Positions 12,247-48,486 are shown, numbered from the stretch's first letter. The stretch is DNA of 64,000 nucleotides from Balanoglossus misakiensis (GCA_040954595.2 CM082590.2:7626001-7690000), one strand, 5' to 3'. Notes: generated by a model not told the origin, from the sequence alone. Made by a program: numbers and translations.

Positions 12247-12312
12247 ATATAATTTTGACTATAGAGGGCGCCAGGACCATTTCTGCTCTCAAGATTGGAT
12301 GCTGGGTTAGAC

Positions 12313-14736: not shown

Positions 14737-15184
14737 TTAAACTGCATTTACAAAGAATCATCACAATTCCAAGGTCAAGAGCAATCCCGCAGTGTGTGAC
14801 ACACTCTTCTGTATTGATGCAATGCTCTACCATGAAAAGTTATAGAGTTGAAATGTAACAATTATAGAGTTTAAATGTATAACCAATAGCCTAAGTTACC
14901 ATGGAAAGTAAAAATCTAGCCAATCACAGATTTCACTTAGTTGTCACATGAAAAAAAAAGTGCCGCCAGGCTGTGTCTGAAGTTTGAAATCACTTTTTAA
15001 TTCGCTGTTGTGTAAACTCTCGCTGCACTTTTTCCATTAATTATGTTTGATACAAGACGCAGTTTATGTTATTCTACATATGGATATACAGTGAATCAAT
15101 GTTCGACCACACACACCACTTGCTAGAAGTCCAACTTTACCAAAGAAAACAATGGATTGTGGACCAGGCTGCTGAGAGCATTAA

Positions 15185-15524
15185 AGGGACAAAGTCTCTC
15201 TCTCGCTGCCCTTTTTCCACTAATTACGTTTGATACAAGACACCATTATATGTGGATATATAGTTAATCAACGTTCAACCTCACACAACTTCCATCCCAC
15301 TTGTAGACACGAGAGTGAAAAAATTTGCCAAAATGAATAATCGTTCTTTACCGTTTATTCATTTTAGGCGAATTGTTACTGTCATTTCATACAAGCGGGA
15401 TGGAAGTTGTGTGTGGTTGAACGTTGATTCACTATATATCCACTAGTAGAATAACATAAACAGTGTCTTGTATCAAACACAATTAATGACAAAAAGGTCA
15501 GCGAGAGAGAGAGACTTTGTCCCT
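15185..15524. mobile_element. Kolobok-type (T2-like) foldback MITE, family K1, 340 bp
   Basis: TTAA TSDs at 15181-15184 and 15525-15528; termini AGGGACAAAGTCTCTCTCTCGCTG / CAGCGAGAGAGAGAGACTTTGTCCCT; largely palindromic body. TTAA plus AGG ends fit Kolobok rather than piggyBac. Confidence 0.88.
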
Positions 15525-15578
15525 TTAAAAATGCAGCCCGGCCGTACCTTGCGTAAGTCACTTCATTTTCAAAACCCA

Positions 15579-22480: not shown

Positions 22481-25244
22481 ATGGAGGACAGACAGAAATG
22501 CCCTACTTGCCGTGAAGTGTACGGCAAAGGCAGAAAACGGAAACTGACAGACATGTGCGGCCATGCCAGATGTTACGAGTGTCTGTTCATTGGCAGTTGT
22601 CCATTGTGTCCAGGTGAGTGGTGAATTGTTATTTGAATATTCTCCAGTGATCTCCCCACTGAAACAACAGAAACTCATTATCATAACGATAGATTATATT
22701 GTTATGCACAATAGCCAATAGGGTATCAGATTTTCCTGGGGAGAACACTGAAATCTGTGTTGTTGCCATTTTTACCCACAATTCATTGTGATTGATGCAC
22801 CCATAAACAGAAAGGAATTTTTTGTGATATTTTTTCACTCCTGCACTTATTTGTGTGAATATATTTAGGATTTATAATTTAAAATTTGAATAATCTCCAG
22901 TGTTCTCCCCATAGCTTTGAAGTATTTCTTTTTTCTGAATGATAATTTATTTTATGTTTTCTTAGATGTAACCGGGGAAACCGCCACTACCACTGATGGA
23001 GATCCGATTGTGGAAGAGACTATGCAGAAGGGAAATGGAGATGTGTTAGGAACTGCAGAGGGTTTTGTTCCGGGAAGAGCAACATCTGCATTGCTGGCCT
23101 CTGGAAGTGAAACTGAAGGAGGAGGATATGGAATACGTCAAGACCCGGATGAGAAATGTTGTGCTGCTGAGGACGGTCCTTCCTGCGCTGGAAGTGGGGG
23201 CGAAAATCATACAGCCCGGCGAGATGGTTTGGGAAATCACGGAGCACATTTGGAGCAGTTTTCCGGTGGTATCGGTATGGATTCTGAACGGCGAAATGCC
23301 GGAACGACTAAGGAAATGTGTAGTGTGCTTCCAGGAAAGAAAAGTCAAGTTGATAGAGAGATGTCCAACTTGGAGGTCTTCTCCTGCGAGCCGTGTGCGG
23401 TCGATTTCTCAAGTGAATCAGCGTGGGATGAACATGTGTTGACGCACACCAAGACAGACAAGCAAGGCACCCAGGACTCAGGAGCTGGAGAGTGTGGCAC
23501 TGAATATAGCGCCAGTGACACTGTCGCTCACATTGCTGTGCATGAAGGTGATTCCACTGAATATAGCGCTGGTGACACTGTTGCTCACATTGCTGTGCAT
23601 GAGGGTGATTCCACTGAATATAGCGCCGGTGACACTGTTGCTCACAGTAACGTGCATGGAAGTGATTCCACAAAGACTGATGTATTACAGCAACAGGATC
23701 ATACAATATCAGACAGGATTCAAAACTCAACTGAAGGCACTAACACAGGGCTTCACCTTAAGGAGAGTCAAGTGGCAACTGTTCAGGAAAAGAAGAATGA
23801 GATTGTTGCAAATGACCCGAAAGACAATAAAAGGAAGAGAAAAAGAGCATCATTCTTATTGGCCGATGCGAAAAATAAATCGCATAACAATGAAGAAACA
23901 CCAGAACAGCCAACAACAACTGGCAAAAACAGGCCATTGAAAGTGAAACTTAAACTGGCCAATTTCGAATGCGATCAATGTGGCAAGACATTTATTAGGA
24001 AATGCCATTACGTGAATCACGTTAAGGCTCACAACAATGAGAAAAAGACTCACAATGAAGAGACAAAGACTCACAACAATGATACACACAACAATGAGAA
24101 AGAGACTCACAACAATGAGAAAAAGACTCGCAGCAGTAAGAAGGCGAGAAAGCCTCAGAAGAAGAAAAAGAAGTTGTCGTATGATTGCCGGAGATGCAAA
24201 ACAAAGTTTAAAGAGAAGGAGGAACGCGACAAACACAAGCCCCTGTGTGCATTCGACCGAGCTCAGGAGGTCCGGCAGACTGAAGAAATCATGGAATTTA
24301 ATTGCGATGAGTGTGGTAAGATGTTCGCATCCAAGGAAAAATTAGGCGTTCATAAGTACATACACACTCGGAAACGCGTGTATCCGTGCAGTTACTGTGG
24401 AAAACAGAACGCTACGAAGCAGCTGTTGGAGGTTCATGAGCGAGTGCATTCTGGGGAACGTCCTTACAACTGTAAGATGTGCGAGAAAGCCTTTAAGGAT
24501 TACAGTTCCTTGAGGGCGCATGTCGCAGTCCACTCCGACGAAAGACCGTTTATATGCACCGTTTGCGGGAAAACTTTCCGATTCAGAAACGTGCTGCGGA
24601 GACACAAGAAGCTGCACACCGACGCCAAGGAACACCAGTGCGATACCTGCGGGGCGCGTTTCCGCGAGACCCACGGCCTGCGCCGCCACCGGATGACGCA
24701 CGCCGAGATCCGGCCGTACCCGTGCCGGCACTGCGCCAAATCCTTCACCACGCCGCACGACCGGAAGAACCACGAGCACATGCACCAGACCGGGAAGCCC
24801 TACGAGTGCGACGTGTGCGGGAGGCCGTTTATGCACCTCAGCTCGCTCGGGAAGCACAAGCGGGCGAAGCACGACCCGACGGCGGGAGTCCTGTGCTACA
24901 TCTGCGGGAAACACTTCGTCTTCAACTGGCAGCTGAAAAAACACGAAGATAAGGAGCACCCGCCGGGCGCGGAATACGGCGAGCCCGTCGTTAAAGCACG
25001 CAAACCGTACATCCGGAACCCGAACCCCACCAAGGACTTCGTCTGCCACGTGTGCGGGAAGCGATTCTCCGCGCGGCGAACGCTACTGAGACACGGACAC
25101 GTGCACAACCCCAATCCGAAGTACTCCTGCAAGGTGTGCGGCCGGGCGTTCGCCGGGAAGTGGAACGTCAAGAAGCACATGGAAAACAAACACAGCACGG
25201 TTAAACCAGATTCGGAATTGCCCCCAGATATTCTTGTGATGTAG
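22481..25244 (+). CDS. RING-finger + ~13 C2H2 zinc-finger protein, ~803 aa
   Basis: join(22481..22613,22966..25244), phase-1 GT-AG intron in frame. First coding exon MEDRQKCPTCREVYGKGRKRKLTDMCGHARCYECLFIGSCPLCP; canonical fingers with HSGERPY and TGKPY linkers; probable non-coding exon ending at 21461. Confidence 0.92.
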
Positions 25245-25495
25245 CCTCATGAGCCTTACATGGATTCTCCTCAGAACAATAGGAACTCTTAATTATAACA
25301 ATTGATTATTTTGTTATGCAAAGTTCGCTAGGAAGTGGAACGTGAAAAAGCACATGGAAAACAAACACAGCACGGTTAAACCAGATTCAGAATACCCTCC
25401 AGATATTCTTGTGATGTAGCCTCATGAGCCTTATGGGTTCTCCCCAGAACAATAGAAACTCTTGATTATAACAATTGATTATATTGTTATGCAAA
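25155..25495 (+). repeat. ~175-bp tandem duplication of the ZNF C-terminus and start of its 3' UTR
   Basis: GGAAGTGGAACGT..AAGCACATGGAAAACAAACACAGCACGGTTAAACCAGATTC at ~25155 and ~25331. Confidence 0.9.
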
Positions 25496-26350
25496 TAAGT
25501 TTAAACATTCCTGGAGAGAACACTGGGATATCGATTTCTTCCTATAGGATTGCATGGAGCACCCATGTAAGTTAGAGATGACTGTACACTTTTACATTTT
25601 TATTATTATAAAGAAATGGATTGCCATGAAAATTTCACTAACATTATACAATAGAAAACATTGGGTTTAGACTGAACTATGGTGGTGAAAGGGGTGGTGG
25701 TGGTGATGATGAAAGGGTAAAATGTTTATGAATCTATTTGTTATAAAAATCGTGCCAAATTTTCTTGTTAATTTTATGCAGTACACAGACAACTCAATTT
25801 AGCACCCAATTGTAAGAAAAGGACGACAGTCAAATCTGTCTACAGTGGCCAGCCAAGAGACATTCCTAAACAAATAAACTATTACTAGCTGAATAAATTC
25901 TTGGAATATTTGACAATACTGAATGGTGTTTACAGAAAAGTATTGAAAAGCAATTAGTTTGTTTTCTGTAACTTTAAAACTTGATCATGTAACTAGCAAA
26001 TACAATTGACCTAAAAATCAAAGGTCTGTTTTTTTAAATAAAGGAACATAAGGTACATATAAAAATTGCAGCTTGTTGCAGTGTTGTGTTACATACATAT
26101 TACATTTACATACATACATACACACAGAAACACACATACTACATCAATGAATGAATGAATGAAAGAATAAATGAGTAAAGTTTTAAAATGCCCACAAAAT
26201 GATAAAAAGAACATTTTCAATGCTGAGTATCAACACATGAAATCTAACAGTCCTGGTTAAAATACCTGAAGGATAATATTTTTGCAATATCCTTTACAAA
26301 ATGTGGTGATGTATAAAGTATACTGTTGAATTGTTCAATGTCCGTATTTA

Positions 26351-27288
26351 TTAGCCTTGATACTTTCGCAAGGCCTTGTTTATATCAACAACACAACCTT
26401 TCCATTTTAATTCCCTTTCATGGGGCGGGACGTAGACTGGGAAATACTTGAAGACAGCTTCTTTGATTGCTTCTACACGTCTTGGACTCAGAGGTTCTTT
26501 CTTAAGGCCCCTTCCTGTTCTCCCGGTAACAGTGCGATTGAATCTCTCTTCCGGTTTGAAGACTTTGTAGACTAGCTTCTTCGCGAAGTTCCCGATGGAT
26601 TTTGACTGGAGCAACGCTTCCTGTGCTGTAACTATTGGGATGGTGTACTTCCCTGGTTGTGATGTTGTTGCTGAGGTATGTGTGTAGTTGTCAGAGGTGT
26701 GCGTGTAGTTGTCAGGAGTGTGCGTGTAGTTGTCAGCTGTATGCGTGTAGTTGTCAGCTGTATGCGTGTAGTTGTCAGAGGTATGCGTGTAGTTGTCAGA
26801 GGTATGCGTGTAGTCGAATGTCTGCGAAGTTGCGCTGCTACATGGGAAAGGTATCGGTGCAGGCGAAGATGAAGACGGCGTTACAAGTGGCAGTCGTATA
26901 CCGGTAGACGTTTCGAGGGGCGCGGGCAAAGACGTTGGATTTCCCGGACGAGACACCACTGGTGGTACTGCAGCTGGTTGTGGAGGTAGCAGCATGGCCA
27001 ATCGCGAGACTGCAGACGCTCCTCCTGGACGATGCGACACACATTTCGCAGACGGCACCTGCTGCGTTTCCGGGCGTGGCTTGTTGTTCGAAGTCGGCGA
27101 CAAGCGACGATTCAACGACTTCAAGAAACCTTTCTCGCTCTTCCTCGATGGCTTGCGCAGATACTTCAGAACCGCGTCCACTTTACGTTCCACACGCGCT
27201 TGAGCAGATTCTATTTTATCTCTCCATCTTTCATCGGTTTCCTGTTCACCATATTCCTCTTCAGAACTTTCTGTAGGCTCCCGATTCC
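26351..27288 (-). CDS. Alternative last exon B-BEN4: short coiled coil + DNYTHTx repeats + BEN domain
   Basis: Phase-1 acceptor TTTTTCTGTACACAG|GG; BEN-like C-terminus NFAKKLVYKVFKPEERFNRTVTG...LSPRRVEAIKEAV...WKGCVVDINKALR. Confidence 0.8.
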
Positions 27289-27457
27289 CTGTGTACAGAA
27301 AAAAATCAGAACAGTACAGCAATAGACTTGTCAATATATATACATGTACATGTATGTGATTTCATAGTTAACAGGTACCTACAGCATGAATGTACAGAAC
27401 CAGTTCAACACAACACACCCGCACACACATGCACACACACACACACACACATTATTA

Positions 27458-27641
27458 CAGTATAACCTGTCTAAACCCAACCCAGTCCAATCTGGAAACC
27501 TGTCTATACTGAACACATTTTCCTGTCCCTTTGACGAACACATAGAACCACATGTTAAAAGAACCTCTATAAACCAGACACCTCTGCAAACTGAACAGTT
27601 TCTTCAGTCCCCATGGTGTTCGGTTTAGACAGGTTTTACTG
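27458..27641. mobile_element. Tc1/mariner-pogo-type MITE, 184 bp
   Basis: TA-CAGTATAACCTGTCTAAACC ... GGTTTAGACAGGTTTTACTG-TA. Confidence 0.85.
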
Positions 27642-28021
27642 TATCAGTACAGTTATTTAGGTTCTAGTATACAACTCAAAGACAGCTTCTATTACAAATT
27701 GATTCCATAAAAACTATAACTGGTTTATTACTATTGGCAGTTAATGAACAAGCTGTCCATTGTGAAACCAGTATTTGCAAGAAGCTATCGTCAAACTGAT
27801 TTCAAAGCAATGATCAGTTTGATAATGGTATAACACAAACAGTATTTTGTTTAGTTATTACATGATACAGTCTTAGGAAATTAGCCAAACAGCATAAAGA
27901 TATAGCTCATAATATGGTTTCAAATTGTATGAAAAAATCTCTTATCTTGAATGTTTAAAAAATACTATCAAAAATCTCCATGAATGCATGCACTGCTTAT
28001 TTCTTCTTCTTTATTGGAGAG

Positions 28022-28797
28022 TCATGCACACTCTATCGCAGGAAAAGGGCCATTCTTTTTCTCCCACGCAAGAATCTCATTTCTCAAGGCACTATTAACG
28101 CAATCACGGGCTTCTCTCCACGCCTTTTCGATCTCCGACGCCGGCGCCGGATACTCTCGGAACACGATCTGCCGGATGGTTTCAACCGTCGTCTGACACA
28201 AGGCGGCCTTCTTCCGGAAGGTGCTGCTCCCGAACAAATTCCGACCGAGTCTCTCCTTCTTGGTGAAGGCGAAGAATACCAATTCTTTCGCGAAATGTCC
28301 GCGGTGTCGCGATCTGGCCTTGATGATCTTGATCTGTTCGGGGTCGTTTAGTCCGCGAATGTTGCCCACAGCTGCTGTTGGGTTGGAGGGCGTTTCCATT
28401 CCCTGGCTCGAAGCAAACACAGGTGTTCCCACTCCCTGGCTTAGAGCGATCGCGTGCGGTGGCACCCCCTGGCTCGAAGCGATCACGTGCGGTGGCACCC
28501 CCGGGCTGGAAGCAATCGCGGATGGAATCCAAATCTTCTTTTCCGATTTTTCCATTTTCTTCACCGTTTTCGTCAAATCCGCCACCAACACGCCCAGCTT
28601 CACGACCATACTTTTGACACTGTCGCACCCCCTGCATTGAGATTCCTCACTCTCTGCTTCGTTCTCTCCGAGTAACATTCCCTGTAACTGCTCCAACACG
28701 GGGGTGCCCACCTGCAACGACGTCCAACATCTATCTTGTGCTTTCTCAGTTACTGAAGTGGGCGTTTCTGTTGTTTTGTCAGTTGCGGTGTGGACCC
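28022..28797 (-). CDS. Alternative last exon B-BEN3 (BEN domain; tandem copy 3)
   Basis: Phase-1 acceptor TTTCTTTGTCTTTCTGCAG|GG in frame; HFAKELVFFAFTKKERLGRNLFG...VETIRQIV...WREARDCVNSALR; a 4-bp insertion truncates the basic tail. Confidence 0.8.
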
Positions 28798-29040
28798 CTG
28801 CAGAAAGACAAAGAAATCCTAGTAGATATGTTCCCAGACTGCCGGCTGTACATACATATTCATCATCCTATTAATATTCATTACAATTTACTTAAAGGTA
28901 AATGGTCACCTATGCAACCTTAGCTACAGTAACCATGGTAAATTGACGTCTAATTAATATTCATTGACGTTTACATATTCATTGCCAAATGCAATTCTTC
29001 GGTCGACCAATTGACCTCTCTACATGAATGCATGCACTGT

Positions 29041-29837
29041 CTATTTCTTCTTCGTTTTTGGAGAGTCACCCTCTATCGCGGGAAATGGGCCATTCTTTTT
29101 CTCCCACTTAAGAATCTCCTGTCTCAGTGCACAGTTGACGCAATCGCGGGCTTCTCGCCACGCCTTTTCGATCTCCGACGCAGGGGCTGGGTACTCTCGG
29201 AACACGATCTGCCGGATGGTTTCAACCGTCGTCTGACACAAGGCGGCCTTCTTCCGGAACGTGCTGCTCCCGAACAAATTCCGTCCGAGTCTCTCCTTCT
29301 TGGTGAAGGCGAAAAATACCAGTTCTTTCGCGAAATGGCCGCGGTGTCGCGATCTGGCCTTGATGATCTTGATCTGTTCGGGGTCGTTCAGTCCGCGTAT
29401 GTTGCCCACGCCTGCTGTTTGGTTGGAGGGCGTTTCCATTCCCTGGCTCAGAGCAATCATGGGCGTTTCCACCCCCTGGCTCGAAGCAAACGCAGGTGTT
29501 CCCACTCCATGGCTTAAAGCGATTGCGTGCGGTGGCACCCCCGGGCTCGAAGCAATCGCGGAGGGAATCCAAATCTTCTTTTCCGATTTTTCCATTTTCT
29601 TCACAGTTTTCGTCAAATCCGCCACCAACACACCCAGCTTCACGACCATACTTTTGACACTGTCGCACCCCCTGCATTGAGATTCCTCACTCTCTGCTTC
29701 GTTCTCTCCGAGTAACATTCCCTGTAACTGCTCCAGCACGGGGGTGCCCACCTGCGATGACTTCGCACATCTATCTTGTGCTTTCTCAGTTACCGAAGTG
29801 GGCATTTCTGTTGTTTTGTCAGTTGCGGTGTGGACCC
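29041..29837 (-). CDS. Alternative last exon B-BEN2 (BEN domain; tandem copy 2)
   Basis: Same phase-1 acceptor, in frame with ORF 29041..29805; own stop after PKTKKK. Confidence 0.8.
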
Positions 29838-30080
29838 CTGCAGAAAGACAAAGAAATCCTAGTAGGTATGTTCCCAGACTGCCGGCTGTACATACATATT
29901 CATCATCCTATTAATATTCATTACAATTTACTTAAAGGCATACGGTCACCTATGCAAACATAGCAACAGTTACCATGGTAAATTGAGGTCTAATTAATAT
30001 TCATTGACGTTTACATATTCATTGCCAAATGCAATACTTCGGTCGACCAATTGACCTCTCTACATGAATGCATGCACTGT

Positions 30081-30976
30081 CTATTTCTTCTTCTTTTTTG
30101 GAGAGTCACACTCTATGGCGGGAAACGGGCCATTCTTTTTCTCCCACTTAAGAATCTCCTGTCTCAGTGCACAGTTGACGCAATCGCGAGCTTCTCGCCA
30201 CGCCTTTTCGATCTCCGACGCGGGGGCCGGGTACTCTCGGAACACGATCTGCCGGATGGTTTCAACAGTCGTCTGACACAAGGCGGCCTTCTTCCGGAAC
30301 GTGCTGCTCCCGAATAAATTCCGTCCGAGTCGCTCCTTCTTGGTGAAGGCGAAAAAGACCAATTCCTTCGCGAAATGGCCGCGGTGTCGCGATCTGGCCT
30401 TGATGATCTCGATCTGTTCGGGGTCGTTTAGTCCGCGTATGTTGCCCACGCTTGCTGTTTGGTTTGAGGGCGTTTCCAATCCCTGGCTCGAAGCATTCGT
30501 GGGTGTTCCCATTCCCTGGCTTAAAGCGATCGCGTGCGGTGGCACCCCCTGGCTCGAAGCAAACGCAGGTGTTGGCACCCCCTGGCTCGAAGCAAACGCA
30601 GGTGTTCCCACTCCCTGGCTTAAAGCGATCGCGTGCGGTGGCACCCCCTGGCTCGAAGCAAACGCAGGTGTTGGCACCCCCGGGTTCGAAGCAATCACAG
30701 ATGGAATCCAATTCCTTTTTCCCGATTTTTCCATTTTCTTCACCGTTTTCGTCAAATCCGCCACCAACACACCCAGCTTCACGACCATACTTTTGACGCT
30801 GTCGCACCCCCTGCATTGAGATTCCTCACTCTCTGCTTCATTCTCTGCGAGTAACATTCCCTGTAACTGCTCCAGCACGGGGGTGCCCACCTGCGATGAC
30901 GTCCCACATCTATCTTGTGCTTTCTCAGTTACTGAAGTGGGCGTTTCTGATGTTTTGTCAGTTGCGGTGTGGACCC
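30081..30976 (-). CDS. Alternative last exon B-BEN1 (BEN domain; tandem copy 1)
   Basis: Phase-1 acceptor TTTCTTTGTCTCTCTGCAG|GG in frame with ORF 30081..30890; own stop after PKKKKK. Confidence 0.82.
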
Positions 30977-31095
30977 CTGCAGAGAGACAAAGAAATCCTA
31001 GAAGGGGTCAAGAAAATGGCCTCTTTCCTGACAACCCTGTTTGACATGTCATGAGTCAGTGTTAGCATGAGATATAGGGTGAATAACGCCCATAC

Positions 31096-33439
31096 CTGTG
31101 AAATATGTACTGTGCTGGTCGACTCCTGCTTGTCTGTTGCCATGGTCACCACTTGTGTTCATCACTTCAATGCGAGAATGTCGTCCGTCAGCAGAAGTGG
31201 ATGCCATCAACTTTTCAGCAGCAATCTGCAAGAAAATGTTAATAGATCAAGATTGGTGTTGAATATGCTATGTACATTCGGTTGCGCTCACAGTCAACAC
31301 TTTGACTGCACAAATTCAAGCATAGATACAGTAGTCATTCAGACACACATTTCTATTTATATACTTAATGGTATATTCATACAAACTACATACAAACATA
31401 TGGTGCATAACCACCCATACATAGATAGTCGCCATTTTCCTTGATCAACAAACACTTTTTCCAACACATGTGTGTTCTTTTATTTTGATACAAATTAAAT
31501 AAAACATCAAACATTTTTACAAAACATGAAAAAACCCCTCAAAAGCTGAAACTTGGAACTCGTTAACTAAGGTTTTTGGATGATTGGTCCTGATACAGTT
31601 TTTGGTGAATGTCAGAATGGAATTTGGGGCTCTGTAAAAACTGAGGAAAATGGTTGTTATATGCTGGCTAATCTTTTTAGCTGGTGTCCCCTTCGCCCGT
31701 TTCAAGGTGTTTGGTACAGTGCCTCGTTTTCGGCACCGATAGCGGATGTCGTCGTTTGAACGCGCGAAGCCATCCGCCAGAAGCCTTGAAATCGGATCGC
31801 CCTAGCAACCGTCTCGCCTGGAGCTGAAGTCCACGGCCGGTGCAGGGTTCCCCGTTCTCCCGGCGATCCTCCAGCCACTGAACCATGGAACGTTCCAGCG
31901 CCGGATCGGTAACCCTCCGCCCGGCACCGGGCAATCGCCGCGCCTCCATCCCACCAGCGCGCAGTTGACCTTTGACCTTGATCCACTGGCGGACTTGCGT
32001 CTCGCTGATCCCGAAGTGGCGTGCGGTTTTCCTGTTGTTGTTCCACTCTAACGCCTTGTCGACAACTTCTAACTTGAAAGCTATGTTGTAAGACGCACGG
32101 CGAGATGACTGAGATGGTTCATTTTGAAGTCAAGACAGAGAAGAGACAGTTTAGGAGAGCCCCTTGACTGGCCACTATAGAACAGGTTTGACTGTTTTTA
32201 ACTGTCACAGTACATCACAAGTAATCTGTTTTGACATACCTCCGCTTTGCTTGGTGTCTTGTCTCCTTTCTTTTTGGTCAGCTTTTTCAATGTGGTAGGG
32301 GTGACTGTCTTTTCCAGCTGAAACAAACATATCAAATGTATGTTAGTGTTTAGTGTAGCCATGTGATGGATATTCTGGCCAATAAAATAAAGCTAAGATG
32401 TATACAATCAATATGAACCATTATACTCAGCAAATTCTTTACTATCAATCTTGTGATCTGGCCATGTGTCCCACGACATTGTCATTTCCAAGTGACGGGC
32501 AACAATATTTCGGCATCCAGTCAAAGTTTTTCCGAGTATGTGTTTACTTTAGAACCGCCAGACACATAACATGTATTGGGCAAAGTTCCTCATCAGCCTC
32601 ATGGAGTTTCAGCTGCACAGTGTCCAACCATACCACGGAAAACAATGTAGAGTGAACCATGGTGGTGAAAGGGTTAAAATTCATTAAAATTTACCTGTGT
32701 AGTTTTGGCTTCCTCACTTGTATCACTGAGACCCTCTTCCTGGTCGAGTTGATTTTGTAGAGCTTCTAATGAAGCCTTGTTATCTGGGGGGGAAAAAACA
32801 ACAAAAAACTCTGTAAATAGTGCCAGTGACACTAGATATTATTCAAAAGTGGAGTATGGACAGTGTGCATCCTTAAAGGGACAAAGTCTCTCTCTCGCTG
32901 CCCCTTTTCCATTAATTATGTTTGATACAAGACACCGTTAATGTTATTCTACATGTGGATATATAGTGAATCAACATTCAACCACACACAACTTCCATCC
33001 CACTTGTAGACACGAGAGTGAAAAACTCGCCAAACTGAATCATCAGTCTCTACCATTTATTCATTTTGGGCGAGTTTTAACTCTCCATACAAGCGGGATG
33101 GATGTTGTGTGTGGTTGAACGTTCATTCACTACATATACACAATGTACATTAACACAAACTCTGTCGTGTATCAAACATAATTAATGACAAAAAAACAGT
33201 GAGAGAGAGACTTTGTCCCTTTAACCCTTTCATGGAAGATGAAAAAAAACTTTAGAATAATTGCCTACCTGAGGTGTTTATAACTGTGACGTATAACAAC
33301 TTGGACTTCTTCCATCCTGATTCCTTCCACTGAACAGACGCCCTTGCGCCTTTGGTGAGACGACTTTCTTCGAATACGTCCGAGGCAAGGACTGCAGTTT
33401 TCTTGTCAACTTCAAAGCGAATCAATGCATAGCCAGGAA
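31096..33439 (-). CDS. Internal exons feeding the BEN cassettes (BEND5-N-like beta domain + linker)
   Basis: Exons 33439-33269 (VPGYALIRFEVDKKTAVL...VQWK...VTVINTS), 32783-32695, 32317-32240 and 31225-31096; all GT-AG, phases 1/1/0/0/1 consistent and stop-free. Resemblance to the BEND5 N-terminus is from memory. Confidence 0.75.
31677..32108 (-). CDS. Alternative last exon: Brinker-type DBD + CENP-B/Tc5 HTH (pogo-derived, no DDE domain)
   Basis: RRASYNIAFKLEVV...TARHFGISETQVRQW then LERSMVQWL...FKASGGWLRAFKRRH; first AG after the pyrimidine tract (CTCAG|TCA) is phase 0, matching the donor at 32240; minus-strand AATAAA at 31479-31484. Confidence 0.72.
   Translation of the reverse strand, partial: SSRRASYNIAFKLEVVDKALEWNNNRKTARHFGISETQVRQWIKVKGQLRAGGMEARRLPGAGRRVTDPALERSMVQWLEDRRENGEPCTGRGLQLQARRLLGRSDFKASGGWLRAFKRRHPLSVPKTRHCTKHLETGEGDTS
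32877..33220. mobile_element. Kolobok-type MITE, family K1
   Basis: TTAA-AGGGACAAAGTCTCTCTCTC ... GAGAGAGAGACTTTGTCCCT-TTAA. Confidence 0.9.
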
Positions 33440-34493
33440 CTGAAAGTAAAGATGGAGAATTGCTTTGTGTAGCAGGCTATAGATGTATTTTTTTCTTACA
33501 CAAGAATGCATGCTGCTAGTCTATTATCCAGCTGTGATTTGCCTGCTTTGCTTCCAGAACTAACACCTAGCCTTAACCATGCTACTGGCCCAATAAATTA
33601 AAGCCTGACACCCCTTGCTGGGAATCGCCTCCTTTGAAGTTATTCAACGCTTCTGCTGTCGTGCTACGCTCTTGTAAATCGCAGTAGTCATTAGAATGAC
33701 AAGGGAGTGGTTTAAGAGAATCGGTTTGGCTGATTTGCCTGCAAACACCCAACATGTTTGTCTCGATCATACTCATGCATCTACAAATGCAATCTGAATA
33801 CTTTAGCAGTTTTCAAGTGAGAAGACAAAAAAACAGGGTAGACAGGACAAGAAGTGAATACACTGTATATAATGGTAACTTAGATTTATGTTATAATAAA
33901 CATTTTAAAAGTATTACTATTTTTCATTTTTGAAACAGTTGATAACACTAACAGGGAAATACGGAACTGACAAACATAACAATACTGGCTTTGCTATGAA
34001 ATATAAGTGAACACTTGAACTGGCAACAACGAAATTCAGTTAACTCAACATCTTAATTCTTAGGTGACTCAAGAAAAATGTCCACACTACATGCAAACCT
34101 GTATCGGGCTGCCTCAGGGAATGTTTAAGAAATCCTCAAATTGACTCAAAGCTTTTAAAAGTTATGTTTGTTAACCTTTACACTACCAAGTCAGTTAAAA
34201 CTGGTGTGATTCCCAGGGTGCCCAGAATCCTGGCTCCCAGGCCCGTAATAGGCTGCCAAGTGTGTGTTATTCGGTAGGGCCTATTCAAGACCCTCAGACC
34301 AATAGAGTACAGGGGGCTCAGACTGCCAATTGTGTCTAAGTACGTATGAGAGCCATGTCAAGACAGTCAAAATACGTTTTAGAAGAAAAAGTGGCAAATA
34401 CGTATTTTAAGGGACTTGACACTCTAAACAGGTAAGACACCCAGTAGCATTAGGGTTAAAGTAAAGGGCACACTGGTGATACTGTTCATGTTT

Positions 34494-37400
34494 TTATGTG
34501 CTGTCGGTTGCATGATGTAAGTCTGAGGTCGGGGGTACGTCTGCATTTTTCAGTTCTGCGACACGGGTCTTTTCAGCTGAACGGTAAGTTTTCTTTCCGC
34601 TGAGATTCGCGGCTTGCGCCATCGTTTTCATCAGACCCCTGAGGGAGTTGATGCCCAGTCTCTGATTCTTGTACCAGTTTCTCTGCCCGTACGCTTTGTA
34701 GTTTCTGGAGAGGTAGAGTGGGCTATCCGCAGTCTGCATAGCATCTGGACGTACTTCAACAAACCTCTTATAAGTCGCTACAGGACAGCGTTCCGGGTTC
34801 GACTTATCTTCGTAAATTCTAGGATTTTTTTTTCTAACGATTTCTCCTTTTTTCGTTTTTATCTCTATCTCGTTGTTGTATTCAATGTATTTAACGGTTT
34901 TGCCGTCGATGACTTCGTTGCCCTCGACGATATCGCGAAGCTTCAGGCTGTACTGCTCCTGGGGACCTTGTAATCCGAACTTGGTCGTGAAGAACCACCA
35001 CACAGCGTTCTGAAGTGCAGCCGGGCCCTGCAAACCCATTTGTCCTGTGTTATAAAGTTCGTCGACCTCGTCAGCGGTTAGAGGTTCACTCCTATTGGGC
35101 GTGTTCCCCTTCCCCATCGCTTTCAGTCGCCGTTTCTTAGCAACAAGGACACGCCTAGTTCCATCGAACAGAGCATCGGTTTTCACACGCCACTGATAAT
35201 TTTTATCGCGCAGTTCTCGATCGATCGAGTTAAAGAAACTGTGTAATGAATCAGGCTCGTATTCGGTTCCGTCTTGTCTTCTGGTTGTGTAGAAGTACTT
35301 GATTAACAGTTGGTCCAGTTCCTGGGGTGGGATCTGATGGATTTCGCGACGCTCGGACTGGGTCGAGTTCAGCCACGTTCGAAGCTGGTTCATGTCATTT
35401 CGTATTTTTCTGGCGGTGTTCTTCGCGATTTTGTGCTTAGAAGAATTTGGCCCATTTGTGTCGTGTTGACGATCAGCGTCCGACTGTAGGACCCAATGCT
35501 GTGATGTTTCATAACCTGGAAAGTAAAACTCATTGTCAAGAAGATCGGAGAGGAAGTGTTCGGCCATGTTGTACAATGCTGGAATAGGCTTATAGCAGGC
35601 GACAAACCATGGGCAAATCGTACCAGCAATCAGTTTTGTCATCTCCGATACGCGAAAACGCCATGCAGTCCCCCAGTATGTGGTCTTCCTATGTCTGGGC
35701 AAGTTTCCATCGGTTGCATTTGGGTTCAGGCGTTGCTGTATCTCTCCAAGTACACAGCATAGCGATTGTTCTTAGTGGCATGGGCGGGTCTTTTAACATC
35801 ACGGTAGGCATCATAAAAATGATGATCATGTTTCAGGCTAGCTTCGACAACTAGCTCACTCTCAATATTTATCTGGTATATTTCTTGGACCAGGGGGATT
35901 ATTCGGTGTAAACGATCTTGGGTTGAAACTGGCTGTGTCTCTATTATTCCAACCTACAGGGGAGGGAAGTGAATCTCCACGCAGCTCCGGTACATCCCCT
36001 GCCTTGCCCACGTCCCTCGGCCATGCCCCCTGCCACACCCACATACCCTACCACGCCCGCGGTCCCCTCTTCTGCCAGGCTGGCCTTCAGGGTTCAAAGG
36101 GTTAACGAAGCAAGCTTTTCAGAAGTAGTACTTTTTCAATCAGCTAGTTATTTTATATAAACAACTCTGCACGCGCACCACAATGAAAGTACCGGTAGTT
36201 CCGGTCACAGTGGAAATATATTCTGTATCTTCACCAGGTAAAAATACGGGGTTATTTCTTCACTGTGGATAATACTTCACTGTGGATTTTTTATCTTCAA
36301 TATAGTTGAAATCATAACAGCTCTAGGACCGTCACCCCCTGGATTTTACCCAGTAGGCACCTGAGCCAACCATATCCCTAACATTAGCCCTAACTGGTGC
36401 AGGTGGTAAAAACCCAGGGGGTAACCGCCTTGATACCATCACATCAGGACACAACTTACCTGGTTCCAAATCAGAGTCATCGATAACCACAGGAGATAGT
36501 GCAGAGACATCCTCATTTTGTAGAATTTCTGTTCCGGCGTCGGAATTGTCAACGTCTGACCCAACTTCCCGATCAAACGAGGGTGGATCCAGCAGTCTAG
36601 CTAGTGGTACCTCGTTAACAATGTCATGCTCTGTAAAAACAATAGGTTTAATTAAATGCATAAGGTCAGCTGAGGTTTCCATAGATGCTGTTAAATTTAT
36701 TTCCCAGAAAAACTTTCTAGTGTCTCCAATCCAGGCAGTACACACTTTGAAAATCAGTCTGAGCTTATTCTCAGGTTTTGTTCAAAGCAACCTTGCAATA
36801 TTTACTGTTGAAACTGAGAATAAAAATTGGGAGCCACAATTTTGAAAGAAAAAGCCAAAGTTGGCTCTAACCTGGAATTCAAAATTGCTATCCACACGAT
36901 TAAAGGGAATATGACCGTCTTATGCGCATGTGCCAAACCAGAGACTCTTGTTACAAAAACTGTCCAGTCAATGCCATAAGGCAGTGTGGTGTCCTAACAA
37001 TGGACAAAACTATGCATAAGCACATAAGACGATCGTCCCTCTTTAACATGGGGAAAGTAGTGATCTTTAAGAAACAAGATGGCCACTAGACTCATCCACA
37101 TCCTCTCTTAGACGATGTTTCACTGACTTACCATTTGCTGTTATGAAATTTGCAGTTTCCTCTTCATCTTGCGTTCCAGTTGGACGAACACTGCCCTCAG
37201 TGCCAGCCTGTACACTTGTTCCTTGGCCACCCTGGTGTCGACCTGACCGTCTAAGAAGGCGCTCTTTTGACCCACTGGCGACTGAGACATTGATATTCTG
37301 TGCGGTCTGGTCTCCATGATGTGGAACATTCTCTGCTACAACTCTGTGAATCGTTTCGTCCGTGACGCTCATGTCCAGATCGTCAATGTCTGAATCAGTT

Positions 37401-39034
37401 TCCTGTTTCACGGTTATCACACCGACGTTGTCACTTGGCGTTGAAACTGCTCGCGACTCACGGCGCCTTTTTGAATCACGATCGCCAGAGTCACTGCTAT
37501 TGGGATGCGTGCGTTTTAAGGCTCCTGATTTGTATGTCGTGCTGCCTGACGCGCAATTTGAGGTGAATCGGTCTTGGAAATTGTAGACGTTCGGGGCGTC
37601 CACACTGTGCTGTGGTGCCGCGTGTCTACGCTGCGTTGACCCGATGATAAGTCTTCCTTGCGTGGCAGTATTGGCTGGCGAGTTTTTGAATAAGTTTCTT
37701 TCAGTCAGAAGGTGATTGTTCGTGATCGCTCCAGAGATCGGGTTCACTTGCATAATCCCACATGGAAACGGCGCATCTGAAGTGATACTTTCAAAAGTCA
37801 TTGCACTTTTCACGGAGGCGTCTTCAACAGTTACGTTGTCGCCAAGTAGGTTACGCGGTCTGGTGATTTCTCTTTCGTCGTCACTGCCAATTTTTGGTGG
37901 CTTTGTTCGTATAATTTTCCCTCCCAGATAGAGGTAGTTGATGAACAGTACGAGATCTGTTAGAAATCACAAAAGAAGAACCTTATGTCATGAATAAACT
38001 TAGCCATACAAGAAAACATCATAATGACATTGACAAATACTGGTTTCATTAATTGATTCAGGTATACCGGAATTTGAATCAGTGTTCAGAAAAGACTTGG
38101 TGATCAGTCTAGACAGATTTCATTGTTCACTTTCCTATGACAGTTTCACCCTTTTCATTGTTCTCCTCAAAAAGATTTGGGAAAAACAATAGAAACTCAT
38201 TACCATAACAATTAATCGCATTGTATGTAAATTAGCTAATACAAAATTTTCCTTCTTACCTGTGTGAGTTAAGTTTCCCTTGATCAATCTCTGGTAGAGT
38301 TGTTGAGTTGAGTGTTGGAACCAGAGTCCAAACATACTTAATTTTTCTCCTTTTTGCAAAGTCTCCCATATTTTCTTACACTCTAATAAAATCACACAAA
38401 ATGAGAATATTTTAATGATTACAATCAGAACTTAAATAAAAGATAAACTTTTTTTTCAATTTCATAATGTAAAACTGACATGTACACATTGTATTGCATG
38501 CACTTGCACTGAAACTATTTATTTCACCCATTATCATATGCATACTTTATGCATTGGGGTACCACAGCGGTACATGCACGAAGCTCCATATACATGTACA
38601 TGTATAAGACAACGCACTTGGTTGCCTAGCAACACTCATATGTCCTCGTCTCTGCGAGCAGCCATTTTACTGGTCACGTGCTTGACATGTGACTTTACTG
38701 AACGACTAAATTTCTTTTACTAAAATGGCGGCCCCCATAGGCGCGGCGATACCTGACCATTTTCTGACAGCAAAGACCAAAGCCGCTTGAATCAAAAGTA
38801 TGCGTTTTTGTGTAAAGGACCAGATAGCTCTGCTTGGCAGGGGTGTGTGCCTTACTGGTACAGTGAGGGTGTAATGCCTCCACCGTAGTAGGACACAGGT
38901 TTAATATTTTTTTAACTTTTTTAAAAATAACGCGTGACACGAAGACACGTCCACTTACCGTCCAACTCGCAAAAGACCATAATCTCCTTGGTAACCACAC
39001 TTCCCTCAAGCGAGGTCGAGTTAGAAGTTGCCAT
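34494..39034 (-). CDS. Fusion gene B: unrecognised N-terminal domain + linker + Crypton-derived DUF3504 domain (ZMYM/QRICH1/KIAA1958-like), ~702 aa
   Basis: Exons 39034-38959 (Kozak GCCATGG), 38382-38260, 37956-37132 and 35578-34494, all phase 1 and in frame. DUF3504 motifs: RRQDGTEYEPDSL, GKGNTPNRSEPLT, PERCPV..Y, WYKNQRLGINSL..LMK. Confidence 0.82.
36460..36813 (-). pseudogene. Symmetric phase-1 cassette exon with an in-frame TGA (pseudo- or poison exon)
   Basis: Acceptor TTTTTATTCTCAG|, donor CAG|GTAAGT, 354 nt; open except for TGA at 36784-36782. Confidence 0.45.
36904..37042. mobile_element. Small degenerate TTAA-flanked MITE (Kolobok-like)
   Basis: TTAA-AGGGAATATGACCGTCTTATGCGC ... 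GCACATAAGACGATCGTCCCTCT-TTAA, imperfect TIRs. Confidence 0.55.
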
Positions 39035-39177
39035 GGCAGTATCCTAGGGTATCATCGACGCTGACACGTTGCTATGGCGTTGCTAACGCTCGTATTTCCG
39101 CACAAACCACGCTGCTCGACCAACAACAACATTGAAAGGTCACGCAGGCGAGAGTTCACAGTTCAGGGAGCAACTCA

Positions 39178-39240
39178 ACTGCGCATGCGGATTGCTAGAA
39201 GGAAAAAATCAGGGCGACCTGTAGAGGGCGACATGGCGGA
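39178..39240 (-). promoter_or_regulatory. Promoter motifs of gene B
   Basis: NRF1-like TGCGCATGCG at 39180 and AGAGGGCG ~41 bp away; the same arrangement occurs upstream of gene C. Confidence 0.55.
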
Positions 39241-40202: not shown

Positions 40203-43200
40203 TCAAAATAATGGCTCTTCATCCTCATCTTTGTCGTTGGACAGGTCGGTCAGCATGTCCGCTAAGACCTGATCGTTGTGGATCAGTTCCGCTTCTCTGC
40301 CGTCTAAGGCGTTGCTGATACCGCACACCTTGAAAGATTTCGCCACCACGGCCGGTTTCGTCTTCATTTCGTTCCACGCGTCGACCACCCAGTTGAGGAT
40401 CGTCTGCTGACGATCGATGGCGGTGGCGAGGCGCCCTCTGTGGTCGTCGCTTTCGGGGGGATCCCGCGGCGATTCCCGGATGTACGACGTCACGGAACGG
40501 AGGAGGGTGGACTTGAACAGCTTGCGCGGGGCGACATCGAGGGGCTGCAGTTTGGCGTTGCAGCCAGCAGGTATCACCGCCGTGACTCCATTCGCCCGAC
40601 AGATTCTCGACTCGACAGCGTCCGTTGTATGGACGCGGAAGGAATCGAGAACCAGCATGGAGTAGCGACGCTCGGTGTACGGCACCCAGATTTCGTCCAC
40701 CCACTTTGCCATCAGGGCGTCGTCCATCGAGCCCGTCGGGTGACACGCAACGACAAAGCCCGGTGGGTGTTTCAGGTGGTACTCTCGTTTCCCTTTAAAG
40801 ATGATCATGGGCGGGAGAACATCGCCGTTCGCCGCGATCGCTAAGACCACCGTCAGGTGTTGTTTCTTGGTGCATGTCATCCGAACTTTCGCGTTCTTCG
40901 TACCACGCTTCTTCGCAATATTTGGGTCCAGATCGATGTAGAACGGCATCTCGTCCATGTTCCCGATGACGTCGAAATCGCCCGCGAGGCGCCGGGTTCG
41001 GACGTACGCGTGGAAGTCGGCGACGAGCGGCTGGAGGTCGCCCGGGAGATTTTGGGAAACGGGAGCGTTACCGCGGAGGACGCGGTCGTGGCGGGCCATG
41101 AACTTGTCGCACCAGCCCCGGGAGGCTCTGAAGTCGCCGTTCTCCGGCCTGACGACCTCCAGCGCGTGGTTGCAGATCGCGTCGATGGTGACGGGGATCT
41201 GGCGGTCGCGTCGCTGCAGAATCCACTGCAGGATGGACTCGGTGGTCTCGGCCGAATACGACACCTGACGGCCGCTCCCGACCAGTCGACCGCCTCTTGT
41301 GAACCGGTCCTTGCTGAAGTCGTACTTCTTCCACGTCTTCAGGGTGGACATCGGAATCTTGAATGACCTCGCCGTGGCGTTGAAACCTTCGACCTTCGCC
41401 AGGTCGAGAATTTCTTGGCGTTGTTTTAGGGTGTACGACAGGTAATGACCCCGTTTCTTGACTGCGGATGATGTCCGTGCCATGACTTCGTAAGAAGGTG
41501 GTGGTGGTTCGATGATTGAGGTAGGTTGTACAGAGGGGACTGGGGAATCGAGGACAGATGTTGACTGTGTGGGGACTGGTTGAACGACATCTTCAAGAGT
41601 TTGAGACCTGGAGTTGATATGTGGTTTCTTTCTCGGTCTCCCAACTGGACGTTTCGCTTTTCTCTCCAAAGGTTGAGGGGTGATAGACACTGATCTTGGT
41701 AATGCGGGAGTCTCGCTTGAATCTGCAAGAGTTTGAGAACTTGATTAGATACAAAATGTATGTGGTATCTTTCTAGGACTGACCCACTCCCAACTGGTGG
41801 GTTTTCTTTTCTCTTCATAGGTTAAAGGGACAAAGTCTCTCTCTCGCTGACCTTTTTCCATTAATTATGTTTGATACAAGACACTGTTCATGTTATTCTA
41901 CATGTGGATACATAGTGAATCAACATTCAACCACACACAACTTCCATCCCGCTTGTATGATATGAGAGTAAAAACTCGCCCAAAATGAATAAATGGTAGA
42001 GACCGATTATAAAATTGGTGATTTTTTTCTGCGACATCTGTGGGCTTACCTGCAGCGAGTGGAACGTTCTCTTCTACAACTGTGTGTGATGTGACAAAGT
42101 TATCGCCATAGACATTTGCAAGCAGATTTTCATCTGTATCCGATTCCTGACAAAGAGGTACATTCTCTGCCACTACTTCGTGCAACGTGGCACCACCCTC
42201 GTCAGTGACTTTTCCAAGAAGATGTTCGTCTATATCAGATTCCTGTTTCACAGTTATCACGCTGATGTTTTCCGCCTGGTTTGTCGAAACTGTTCGCCAA
42301 TCACAGCACCTTTTCATGTACATGTAATGAGCACCAGGTTCGTCATTGTTATTAGGACGCGTACGTTTTAAAGCATTTCCACTCTGCAAAGGCGCGTCAT
42401 CTAACACACCATTCGACGCGAATCGGTCTTGAATATTGTACACGTTTGAAGCGTTTCCACGGTGATGTGGTGCGGCGTACCTGTGCTGTGTCGAACCGAT
42501 CATAACCCTTTCCTGACATTCCGGCGTTTTGACAAAGTTTCTTTCCGTCGGAACATGATCGGTCGCGATTTCTCCAGACATTGGGTTCGCCTGCATAATT
42601 CCACAAGGGAAGGGATCGTCGGATGTGACGTTATCAAAGGTCATCGCACTCTCTGCGTGATCTTCTTCCTCAGTTACGCGGTCACCAAGCACGTGATGCG
42701 GTCTGGTGGTTTTTATCCTTTCGCCACGGCCGAACTTCAGTGACTCTCTGCGCGTAACCTTCCCACCGAGGTAGAGGTAGTTGATGAACAGCACAAGATC
42801 TGTCAGAAATCATGAGAATATATTGTTATGATATACAGTACCAGAATATGCTTGACAAATACTTGATTTAATTGCCGCTGCTAACTAGCCTAGGGGCACT
42901 CAAATTGACAATTGAGAAAACCACTGCCTCATTTATGTGATAACTATCTTAAATTTACTCTGATTTCTCACTGTGCATGTGATCAGCAGCAAACATTAAT
43001 CAACATCGATAACTAAACTGCAAAGCAAACTTTATTTTGGATATCAACCCAAAATTTGTCACACTTTTGAACTTTTATTTAGGGGAGTGGTTTCGGATCC
43101 AAGTGTAAAAATTTTGTTCGCGACAATTTTGACAGTCCCTATAAAGTGTAGACAGGTTTCAATGAAGCCTGTTTCTTTCAAATCTCTGCTTCATTTTTCT

Positions 43201-43843
43201 GTCTCTTACCTGTCTGGGTTAGTGTTTTCTTGACCAATCTCTGATACAGTTGTTGTGTCGACTGGAGAAACCAGAGTCCCAGCATGCTTTCCTCTCCCTG
43301 TAAAGTCTTCCATATTTCCTTACACTCTGACAAGCAAAATCCAAATAGTCAATCCTGTGTTAGTGGCCATCTCTATATAGTGGAATATTGTCTATAGTGG
43401 TACATGTATATACTTCATAACAGTACCTGCGCAATTTACATCTATAAAGGTCATATGTCCACAAAGAACAGGTAAAATAATGCCCCTTGAATGGATATTC
43501 TATAGGTAAATCTGTGTTTGGCCACCTCTATATAGTGGTCACTTTCTGTTTGAGAAGTTTACATGTGCATAAGTTGATTGACCTCATTTGACCTGCCTAT
43601 AAAGGTCACCCATATGCCACGGTAGGTTCGACACGATTGTGGATTTGGGGAGGGTCTGCATGACTTGGAAACGGCCAGGGGTCTAAGTGACCTGACCCTC
43701 TTTCGAGCACACAAAACATCACATAGCGAGTTCAACCAAACAGCAATAAATACACTATGTTTACCTTCGAACTCGCAAAGCACGATGACTTGTTTGGGAG
43801 AAGAGCTTTTTCTCGTCTGCGAGGATGCGCAGAAAGTTGTCAT
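40203..43843 (-). CDS. Fusion gene C: unrecognised N-terminal domain + linker + AT-hook + pogo (POGK/POGZ-like, DD35D) transposase, ~821 aa
   Basis: Exons 43843-43765, 43326-43210, 42799-42050 and 41722-40203, all phase 1 and in frame. KRPVGRPRKK AT-hook, two HTHs (FRASRGWCDKFMARH), triad IGNMDE / LVLDSF / LQPLD with 35 residues between D2 and D3. Confidence 0.88.
41826..42010. mobile_element. Left half of Kolobok-type MITE K1 (intron of gene C)
   Basis: TTAA-AGGGACAAAGTCTCTCTCTCGCTG..., truncated at ~42010. Confidence 0.8.
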
Positions 43844-46718: not shown

Positions 46719-48486
46719 GCTAGGTTATATATTCGATTTTGTCATTTCGATTCAATCTTCGGTCAAAACTTTTCCCCCAAAATGCATGACTTGTTTACTT
46801 TGCTGACTGTTTTGCATGCATATGTTCCTTTAAGGCGTGGTTTTCAGTAAGTATAATTATAATTATTCTAATTTCAATGGAACTTACTATATTATGAATA
46901 TAAATTCGGCGGACGTCAGACACGCCCAGAAACTCGACATTCGAACGTAGAAGAGCGCAGCCAGCGGTTGGATATAAAATAGAACCAGTAAATTTCCCCA
47001 TTTGGGGGTAGTGGAGGGTATCGCAGCGCCCCCATTAGGCAAGTGGAACGGGTCTGAGAGACCCAATTTGCTGGCAAATCCATAGAGGGAGCACCTCATT
47101 GCTCTTGGCAGTGTCCCAAACACAGTGTTGAAAAAATAAAATATAGAGATTTCTTTCCCACAAGAGACTAGTACATTAATATTTCACAAACAAGAGCATT
47201 TAAAAGTTTCACGACAAAGTTGCGATAGAGGACTTTTGGTTGTTAGCTGAGATTCCCCAAGAAAGCAGTAATGACAATATCAAAAATAGAGTTCATTATA
47301 TTAAAGCTTTTATTTCAATGTTAGAAACTACACACATTTTCAAATCTTCACCCCAAAGGGGACAAGAAAGGAAAGGGTTTCAAACATCAATACAACTGTA
47401 CATGTTGTATGATAAAGTCAAAACACACACCAGTTGTCTGCACAGTGGTTGCTGTCGTGTCTAAGACATGGCATCTTGATTCTGATTGGTCAAAGAGAAT
47501 TAAGACAAAATCCAGCTGTGACCCAAATGAGCTGAACTTTGCCAACAAAAACAACAACAACAACAACAAAACAAAGAATGTATTTTGTAATGTTGACAAG
47601 TTGTTTACAACAAGATGCAACTCGAGTACGGAGTCTTTCGAAAAGCTATCGGTCACGTGATCGTTATTTTACAGCTTGACGTCATCCATAGTACCGTCAT
47701 AGCGACATGCCTGTTGCTAAGATTCCATGTCAAAGATAGTGCCAACATCCGCGTTTCCATGACAACATTTGGGTGTTGACTCATATATAATTGTAGTGTT
47801 AACACAACTACAATAGTAAACAAAATACACAAACACAAACAAAAAAATTCAACATCAGGATAAACGTGGCTTCAACATAAGAAAGAAAGAAATTATGGTA
47901 TATAATCATCTCTAATTTACATATGTTCATATTTGGCCAAAAGGTGGTGTTTAAATATTCAAATGACCACACCGTGCTGAAAATCTGTGATTAGTATAGG
48001 TGAATATAGTGGGATGGATAACAATAGGCCACTACATGCACTGATTGTAGGCTAGTGGGGGGGGGGGGTGTTACTCCTATTGAAAAACCTTGTTGGGTTC
48101 CAGACAATATATTTCAATAGGAGCACCCCCCCCCCTCTCACTACAGCATCACACTGAGGTAATTGTCTATATACCCTAGCATCTGAAATCAATTTTCTCT
48201 AATAGGACACTTTCATTTTTGGAATAACCATTCTGACTGAGCAAAGCTTTCTTCCAGACATTGAAGCGATATCTGAAAGAGACAAAAGAGACAATTAAAA
48301 CACATGGGTTCACCAACATATCAACTGTCTTTTTCAATAGCTTTCAAATAAACATACAAAGACATTTAGGACCATTAGGCTAATATCCATTCCACAATTA
48401 AGCGTTCCACTACAATTTCCGAAAGCAAAGAACATTTGGGGATGGTTGTATCAGATATGCAAATTATGCTTACCGTGTGTTTACCT

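Follow-up and report, generated by a model that had tools for sequence, protein, structure and literature searches.

A 64-kb window of the Balanoglossus misakiensis sequence CM082590.2, which is eukaryotic DNA, contains on its minus strand gene B, a locus in which three constant exons (the head) are followed by six candidate last exons (the tails). The joins between them were read from the genome sequence alone. From the head, a phase-1 donor leads to six stop-ending exons of fitting phase on the same strand, and joining the exons by coordinate yields six stop-free frames of 702, 597, 795, 762, 755, and 809 amino acids (aa), precisely the lengths that an initial annotation of the locus had predicted. 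The locus is real and well formed. Its features, all on the minus strand, are the following:

39035–39200, minus strand: likely (putative) promoter and 5' leader, CpG-rich and with an NRF1-like motif, placed from the observed/expected (o/e) CpG ratio of 1.29 and motif matches within 39200–38901; NRF1-like and the other motif names are ones we take to apply
38959–39034, minus strand: head exon 1, with the ATG and a phase-1 donor; paralogous to gene C 43843–43765 and gene A 21016–20989
38260–38382, minus strand: head exon 2, phase 1-1, carrying the helical head domain; 71% identity to gene C and 43% to gene A
37132–37956, minus strand: head exon 3, with the end of the head domain, a second conserved motif block, and a linker; phase-1 donor after ...TAN
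36460–36630, minus strand: extra acidic exon of 171 nucleotides (nt), phase 1-1; best donor of 852, AG-free zone of 37 nt, codon score 0.20
35862–35953, minus strand: stretch behind the strong acceptor 35953 (rank 5 of 894); codon score near zero
34494–35578, minus strand: last exon 1, DUF3504 (derived from a Crypton tyrosine recombinase); weak acceptor, in-frame ATG at codon 4
33269–33439, minus strand: shared internal exon x1, phase 1-1, without Met and without a Pfam family
32695–32783, minus strand: shared internal exon x2, phase 1-0
32240–32317, minus strand: shared internal exon x3, phase 0-0
31677–32108, minus strand: last exon 2, Brinker/CENP-B-type double helix-turn-helix (HTH; pogo-like DNA-binding part); PF03221 and PF09607 above cut-off, AATAAA at 31484
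31096–31225, minus strand: adapter exon y1, common to the BEN tails, phase 0-1
30081–30976, minus strand: last exon 3, BEN1 (triplication copy 1), with only variant poly(A) signals
29041–29837, minus strand: last exon 4, BEN2 (triplication copy 2), recognition helix the same as in BEN1
28022–28797, minus strand: last exon 5, BEN3 (triplication copy 3), with three recognition-helix residue changes; AATAAA at 28015 and 27729
26351–27288, minus strand: last exon 6, BEN4, a divergent BEN tail; PF10523 at 32.6 bits (cut-off 23.2), AATAAA at 26352

A codon model trained on genes neighbouring gene B gave the 12 modelled exons 0.20–0.73 bits/codon and four doubtful stretches −0.10 to 0.06. Splice sites were ranked with a rough custom matrix among the 852 GT and 894 AG sites in 25400–39100, and all seven model donors fall within the top 11 GT sites. 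The earlier statement that each tail has its own acceptor in the required phase holds for the phases and for the four BEN acceptors, which rank 1, 2, 3, and 6, but the acceptors of the DUF3504 exon (35578, −2.5) and the HTH exon (32108, −5.5) score poorly; neither is in the top 45, nor is that of head exon 2. The HTH acceptor is preceded by an AG-free zone of 52 nt with a pyrimidine tract, the DUF3504 acceptor by one of only 8 nt. Nor was the first exon set complete: the acidic exon 36630–36460 had been overlooked, and its inclusion would add 57 aa to each isoform. Read in phase 1, acceptor 35953 yields a 30-aa tail and then a stop; it could possibly serve a head-only isoform or act as the 5' leader acceptor of the DUF3504 exon. 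An interpretation of 36630–35580 as a decayed piggyBac cassette was rejected, as neither tblastn nor Pfam supports it. Good phase-0 donors lie 86 nt into BEN1, BEN2, and BEN3 (30891, 29752, and 28712, minus strand), and joining them to the next BEN acceptor shifts the frame; a regulatory or skipping device is possible. Exon x1 lacks any Met, and the first Met of the HTH exon is residue 54, so both require an upstream exon. The assertion that no tail has its own front end fails for the DUF3504 exon, with its in-frame ATG.

The tails comprise three unrelated domain types, as originally proposed. The DUF3504 exon matches PF12012 at 83.4 bits (cut-off 29.7) and, weakly, the QRICH1 chain 9hjt_H (E 0.1). 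The HTH exon matches HTH_Tnp_Tc5 at 57 bits and BrkDBD at 43.6 bits in Pfam, and is 33% identical to the HTH of gene C. Pfam recognizes BEN above cut-off in BEN4 only, BEN1–3 being below its detection; their assignment comes from alignment to BEN4 (33 of 90–92 residues) and from a joint four-row BEN profile, whose top matches are five BEND3 chains (E 0.006–0.04). Exon x1 has no Pfam match and no real PDB match; presumably it resembles BEND5-type N-termini. Read against the Crypton pattern, the DUF3504 motifs at residues 200 and 329 appear to lack the R, H, and final Y of the catalytic R-H-R-Y tetrad. DUF3504 is a candidate, no more, for a sequence-specific DNA binder: Kojima and Jurka leave open whether it binds DNA or takes part in protein interaction (PMC3212892), and QRICH1 is described as a member of a zinc-finger coregulator complex (PMC13538652).

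BEN1–3 form a tandem triplication with a unit of ~1.04 kb and 82–89% identity (blastn). Of 111 core residues, BEN1 and BEN2 share all but one, and their recognition-helix tracts agree at all 42 nt. Because these two exons share the recognition helix, gene B would have at most five distinct tail modules (DUF3504, HTH, BEN1/2, BEN3, and BEN4), and the six specificities previously envisaged are excessive. The BEN1, BEN2, and BEN3 exons are 896, 797, and 776 nt long, their length differences all being whole codons, and BEN4, despite a core identity of only ~36%, remains intact and has an acceptor and an AATAAA of its own. Across the 111 core codons (two sites ambiguous), private synonymous/non-synonymous changes number 7/1 in BEN1, 3/0 in BEN2, and 14/5 in BEN3. 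Tested against neutrality, these counts give P values of 0.0003, 0.013, and 5e-6, respectively, if all rates are equal; under the harshest model tried, which includes transition and CpG bias, they are 0.002, 0.033, and 0.0003. The N-terminal 92 codons of BEN1–3 alone are not significant (P 0.07–0.12). Contrary to silent duplication, purifying selection on all three branches is supported by the core changes.

The differences that distinguish BEN3 are concentrated in the recognition helix. A single 42-nt tract holds 10 of its 19 private nucleotides (P 3e-5, the window having been picked post hoc) and all three of its residue changes, at core positions 92, 96, and 100. In a HMMER alignment extended gap-free by hand, these lie opposite BEND3 residues E807, R811, and K815, which, in the BEND3-BD4/DNA structure, are described as contacting either bases or the backbone (PMC8887127). 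BEN3 may have retained a different recognition helix while the remaining unit was homogenized. The spacers between the copies (29838–30080 and 28798–29040, minus strand) are identical at 233 of 243 positions, which exceeds the identity of synonymous sites in the BEN core (proportion of synonymous differences, pS, 0.15–0.30). Possible causes are recent conversion and constraint acting on the acceptor and 3'-end signals.

Two further genes of the window contain the three head exons, all of which end in phase 1:

40203–43843, minus strand: paralog gene C; head exons 43843–43765, 43326–43210, and 42799–42050, then pogo-type transposase exon 41722–40203; 821 aa open
15579–21016, minus strand: paralog gene A; head exons 21016–20989, 19748–19626, and 18782–18084, then, from 17636, a piggyBac-type exon that is broken close to its end by a tandem repeat

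In both, the transposase tail follows the phase-1 donor of the head, piggyBac type in gene A and pogo type in gene C. The piggyBac-type exon (15579–17636) is broken by the tandem repeat at ~16370–16090, and the C-terminal part, with a zinc finger, is in another frame, possibly behind an intron. By motif, we take this exon to lack the catalytic aspartates. The pogo-type exon (40203–41722) keeps three aspartate motifs; if these are catalytic, as we assume, gene C may retain nuclease activity, unlike gene A. A palindromic repeat of ~350 nt resembling a miniature inverted-repeat transposable element is present at 32873–33224, 19197–19540, 15181–15528, 41820–42029, and 14561–14743 (77–93% identity), three of the copies being intronic, within genes A, B, and C.

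Outside the window, relatives of the head were found in the hemichordate Ptychodera flava. A three-copy exon-2 profile run over 1.84 billion representatives gave four matches at E ≤0.001, three of which carry the head; P0004 was dropped as an unrelated repeat protein. A second search added two head proteins, giving a total of five (P0001, P0002, P0003, P0005, and P0006), all P. flava RefSeq entries from one contig. Proteins of the window itself were not among the matches. The exon-2 profile matches P. flava proteins at residues 26–63, and the joined head of gene B shows 39% identity to P0001 across 199 aa. With head exon 3, a word-indexed search gave no match among 2615 candidates of 481–2000 aa, and a long-alignment search retrieved only P0001 and P0002. 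No match was confirmed in metagenome scans (599 stretches for the head, 287 for the BEN profile) or in a viral scan (163). No published description of the family was found in the open literature, subscription papers being mostly outside this coverage. So far, the head family appears to be confined to hemichordates and is unnamed.

Two P. flava proteins, XP_070546446.1 and XP_070546447.1, which carry the isoform labels X1 and X2, are identical over 399 residues and then continue as ...PAN-D or ...PAN-G, parting at a boundary that matches the ...AN|G of gene B. In genes A and B the head ends in ...TAN with the donor AATG|gt, which dictates a G-first codon at the join; all joins of the window have one, and the D and G of X1 and X2 both fit. 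As a rule, isoform models in RefSeq are based on evidence from transcripts. The head is thus shown as annotated with alternative tails in a relative, the joins of gene B itself being only predicted. The X2 tail consists of a coiled coil and a BEN-like end, of which ~95 residues can be aligned with the cores of BEN1 and BEN3; its score was reached by 3 of 2000 shuffles for BEN1, 1 of 2000 for BEN3, and 1036 of 2000 for BEN4. The 810-aa tail of X1 is unrelated to it. This tail (P0002 residues 545–1211) resembles unnamed animal proteins of 740–890 aa (scores 0.97–0.99), a widespread, stand-alone family without a common Pfam domain; Myb-type and DUF3435 clusters offer weaker leads, and we presume that the tail has the look of a tyrosine recombinase. 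Another P. flava paralog, XP_070545979.1, ends in C2H2 fingers. Across the two species, the head is accompanied by at least six tail types: piggyBac, pogo, DUF3504, BEN, C2H2 fingers, and the unnamed family.

The head itself belongs to no family that could be named. Its model (8-row, natural P. flava head) has four helices at residues 23–77 with a predicted local distance difference test (pLDDT) of ~72; the mean pLDDT is 60, and values of 70–73 are reached over residues 21–80. A single-sequence model of P0001 (pLDDT 36) was too poor for use. Likeness of motifs had suggested a BTB domain, which Pfam does not support: neither BTB nor KRAB was detected in Pfam scans of the five P. flava homologs or of pieces of the window. 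Fold searches with the head model gave a best Z of 3.8 and no BTB among the matches listed, and the ESM Atlas gave no usable feature match. The sole sequence match of the head profile in the PDB is the SETDB2 N-terminal domain (5TFP; 46 aligned residues), which at E 0.3 is not significant and serves as a lead only; it was absent from the fold searches and from a longer-profile search, where chance matches appeared at E 0.45. The four-helix head of ~65 residues might be a protein-interaction module in the role of BTB or KRAB.

Taken together, gene B probably makes several chromatin proteins by cis-splicing its head to one tail at a time. The choice would follow a two-level tree that starts with DUF3504 versus x1, goes on to HTH versus y1, and ends with one of the four BEN exons; competing acceptors and poly(A) sites are likely to decide it. 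Canonical AATAAA follows the HTH, BEN3, and BEN4 exons, whereas DUF3504, BEN1, and BEN2 are followed by variants only; neither AATAAA nor ATTAAA was found after the DUF3504 exon. The initial annotation had seen no AATAAA between BEN1, BEN2, and BEN3; there is indeed none after BEN1 or BEN2, but AGTAAA (29932 and 28892) and three AATGAA are present after each. Such weak signals could let the polymerase read on and make the distal acceptors usable. The head would then supply protein interaction and the tails DNA or chromatin targeting. The family may have grown as transposon open reading frames inserted downstream of the phase-1 donor and were captured by head-carrying genes, and the BEN tails may have been multiplied by tandem duplication of a BEN exon.

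Several observations weigh against this interpretation. The joins of gene B are predictions, not observed junctions. That of DUF3504 to the head appears the least certain, given the weak acceptor, its short AG-free zone, and the nearby in-frame ATG. The BEN1 acceptor lies only 119 nt past the y1 donor and equals those of BEN2 and BEN3 in strength, so skipping BEN1 needs regulation; a search for docking/selector pairing between donor-side and acceptor-side introns (27 pairs) gave a longest match of 10 nt. The BEN2 branch rests on three core changes (nine with the N-terminal part) in an unrooted tree of three copies, and selected sequence could have reached an unused BEN copy through gene conversion. 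In P. flava, the BEN call for X2 was confirmed neither by Pfam nor by hhalign nor by a low-confidence single-sequence model. The P. flava gene yielded just two tails, neither of which is an ortholog of a gene B tail (no match of X1 to the DUF3504 exon or of X2 to BEN4).

Alternatively, the locus could be a cluster of separate genes, in which the head joins one tail, DUF3504 is a nested intronless gene with a promoter at ~36200 and a leader spliced from donor 36047 to acceptor 35953, and/or x1–BEN has its own first exon. The case is strongest for DUF3504, with its ATG at codon 4, the otherwise unaccounted-for strong acceptor 35953, and TATA- and GC-box matches at 36200–35901. The latter agree with the internal promoter formerly suspected at ~36000–36210, but the CpG o/e there is 0.67 as against 1.29 at the start of gene B. 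Likewise, x1-x2-x3-y1-BEN resembles what we take to be a whole BEN gene body, but in a promoter and CpG scan spanning 44600–32901 the CpG o/e falls to 0.27–0.49 in 34400–33500, compared with 1.0–1.3 at the starts of genes B and C. In an exon scan of 34494–33439, no candidate exon combined a Met with a good donor, x1 lacks a Met, and the P. flava homolog is annotated as one head with two tails. Separate genes are therefore considered unlikely. A separate BEN promoter, which the initial annotation would have held against the comparison with mod(mdg4), would not alone break it, because mod(mdg4) tails are described as having their own promoters (PMC13490949).

Trans-splicing of the head to internally started tail transcripts, in the fashion of mod(mdg4), is highly improbable. 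A possible internal promoter, the difficulty of skipping tandem acceptors of equal strength in cis, and the promoters of mod(mdg4) tails as described (PMC13490949) would speak for it. However, cis-splicing suffices, since the tails lie on the strand of the head, in order, and within 13 kb, and no internal CpG-rich start was found ahead of the BEN exons in the interval scanned. That only the nearest BEN exon is translated, with BEN2 and BEN3 as recent silent duplicates in a long 3' untranslated region, is scarcely to be expected: the first canonical poly(A) signal only at 28015 and the near-identity of BEN1, BEN2, and their spacers (recent duplication or conversion) would fit, but the synonymous excess on every branch, the whole-codon length differences, and the intact BEN4 speak against the silence of distal BEN exons that had been allowed for.

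The proposed gene B design of cis-spliced head and alternative tails has two sets of known counterparts. In Drosophila, lola is described as encoding 20 proteins, 17 with zinc fingers, from constant N-terminal exons and alternative 3' exons (bioRxiv 10.1101/132027), and mod(mdg4) as giving rise to 31 mRNAs (PMC13490949). As in these genes, constant N-terminal exons are joined to one of many stop-bearing 3' exons, in gene B by genome structure only. The first description of the locus as mod(mdg4)/lola-like thus agrees with the constant-head/alternative-tail design (in sequence, in selection on the BEN exons, and in X1/X2 of P. flava), but the likeness is one of design alone: the head is not a BTB domain by Pfam, the tails are BEN, pogo-type HTH, and DUF3504 instead of one finger type, and the branch has two levels (x1–x3, then y1). 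Moreover, the head is common to a gene family with single transposase or finger tails elsewhere, and, unlike in mod(mdg4), all six tails lie on its strand and trans-splicing is not required.

Host-transposase fusions constitute the second set. There, the transposon domain is described as occupying an exon of its own, which has an acceptor immediately ahead of the transposase frame and was captured through alternative splicing (bioRxiv 10.1101/2020.05.07.082677). A separate in-frame transposon exon, as in the tetrapod fusions (KRAB-transposase, KRABINER, SETMAR, and PGBD3-CSB), is found in the piggyBac exon of gene A, the pogo exon of gene C, and the HTH and DUF3504 exons of gene B. Gene B differs in being an invertebrate gene with an unnamed head that is neither KRAB nor SET, and its locus keeps several captured tails, including a Crypton-type recombinase domain. 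A two-tail precedent for DUF3504 is KIAA1958, described with two isoforms that use different intronless DUF3504 exons, while in KCTD1 a BTB domain is accompanied by a captured DUF3504 exon (PMC3212892); the KIAA1958 tails are of one type, as against the three unrelated types of gene B, and the heads are unrelated. Gene B would work like lola, mod(mdg4), and the host-transposase fusions, and appears to belong to neither family. An extension that we regard as quite unlikely is that the head is a hemichordate counterpart of KRAB, related to the SETDB2 N-terminus and pairing with a histone H3 lysine 9 methyltransferase; the splice-in family would then aim silencing via piggyBac, pogo, Crypton-type, BEN, and zinc-finger parts, and gene B would switch among five modules, shielding the BEN3 recognition helix from conversion.

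Other features of the window surround the head genes. A C2H2 zinc-finger frame of 784 codons (22890–25241) runs on the plus strand in the interval separating gene B from gene A, and its last ~70 codons are duplicated just downstream (25148–25322 versus 25323–25495, 91%). The upstream neighbour (49820–51368 and 48480–48570, minus strand) contains repeated single-exon modules of ~160 aa, cysteine-flanked and 31% alike, and a hydrophobic C-terminal exon; it looks like a surface-anchored protein. To the left of gene A, tandem-repeat arrays occupy 1–1140, 5300–8700, 9100–10900, and 12300–13050; one of them, with an 84-nt unit, gives a long spurious frame at 1–1140.

Gene B would represent a known design with new parts, namely an unnamed head and three unrelated tail types. 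If correct, the proposed splicing would place the lola/mod(mdg4) design in a deuterostome and provide an invertebrate example of one host domain repeatedly capturing transposases; Cosby et al. proposed that such capture should exist beyond vertebrates (bioRxiv 10.1101/2020.05.07.082677). The annotated P. flava homolog makes the partner of the head and the targets of the tails testable. With one head joined to at least six tail types in two species, the locus may show how new transcription factors are assembled exon by exon.

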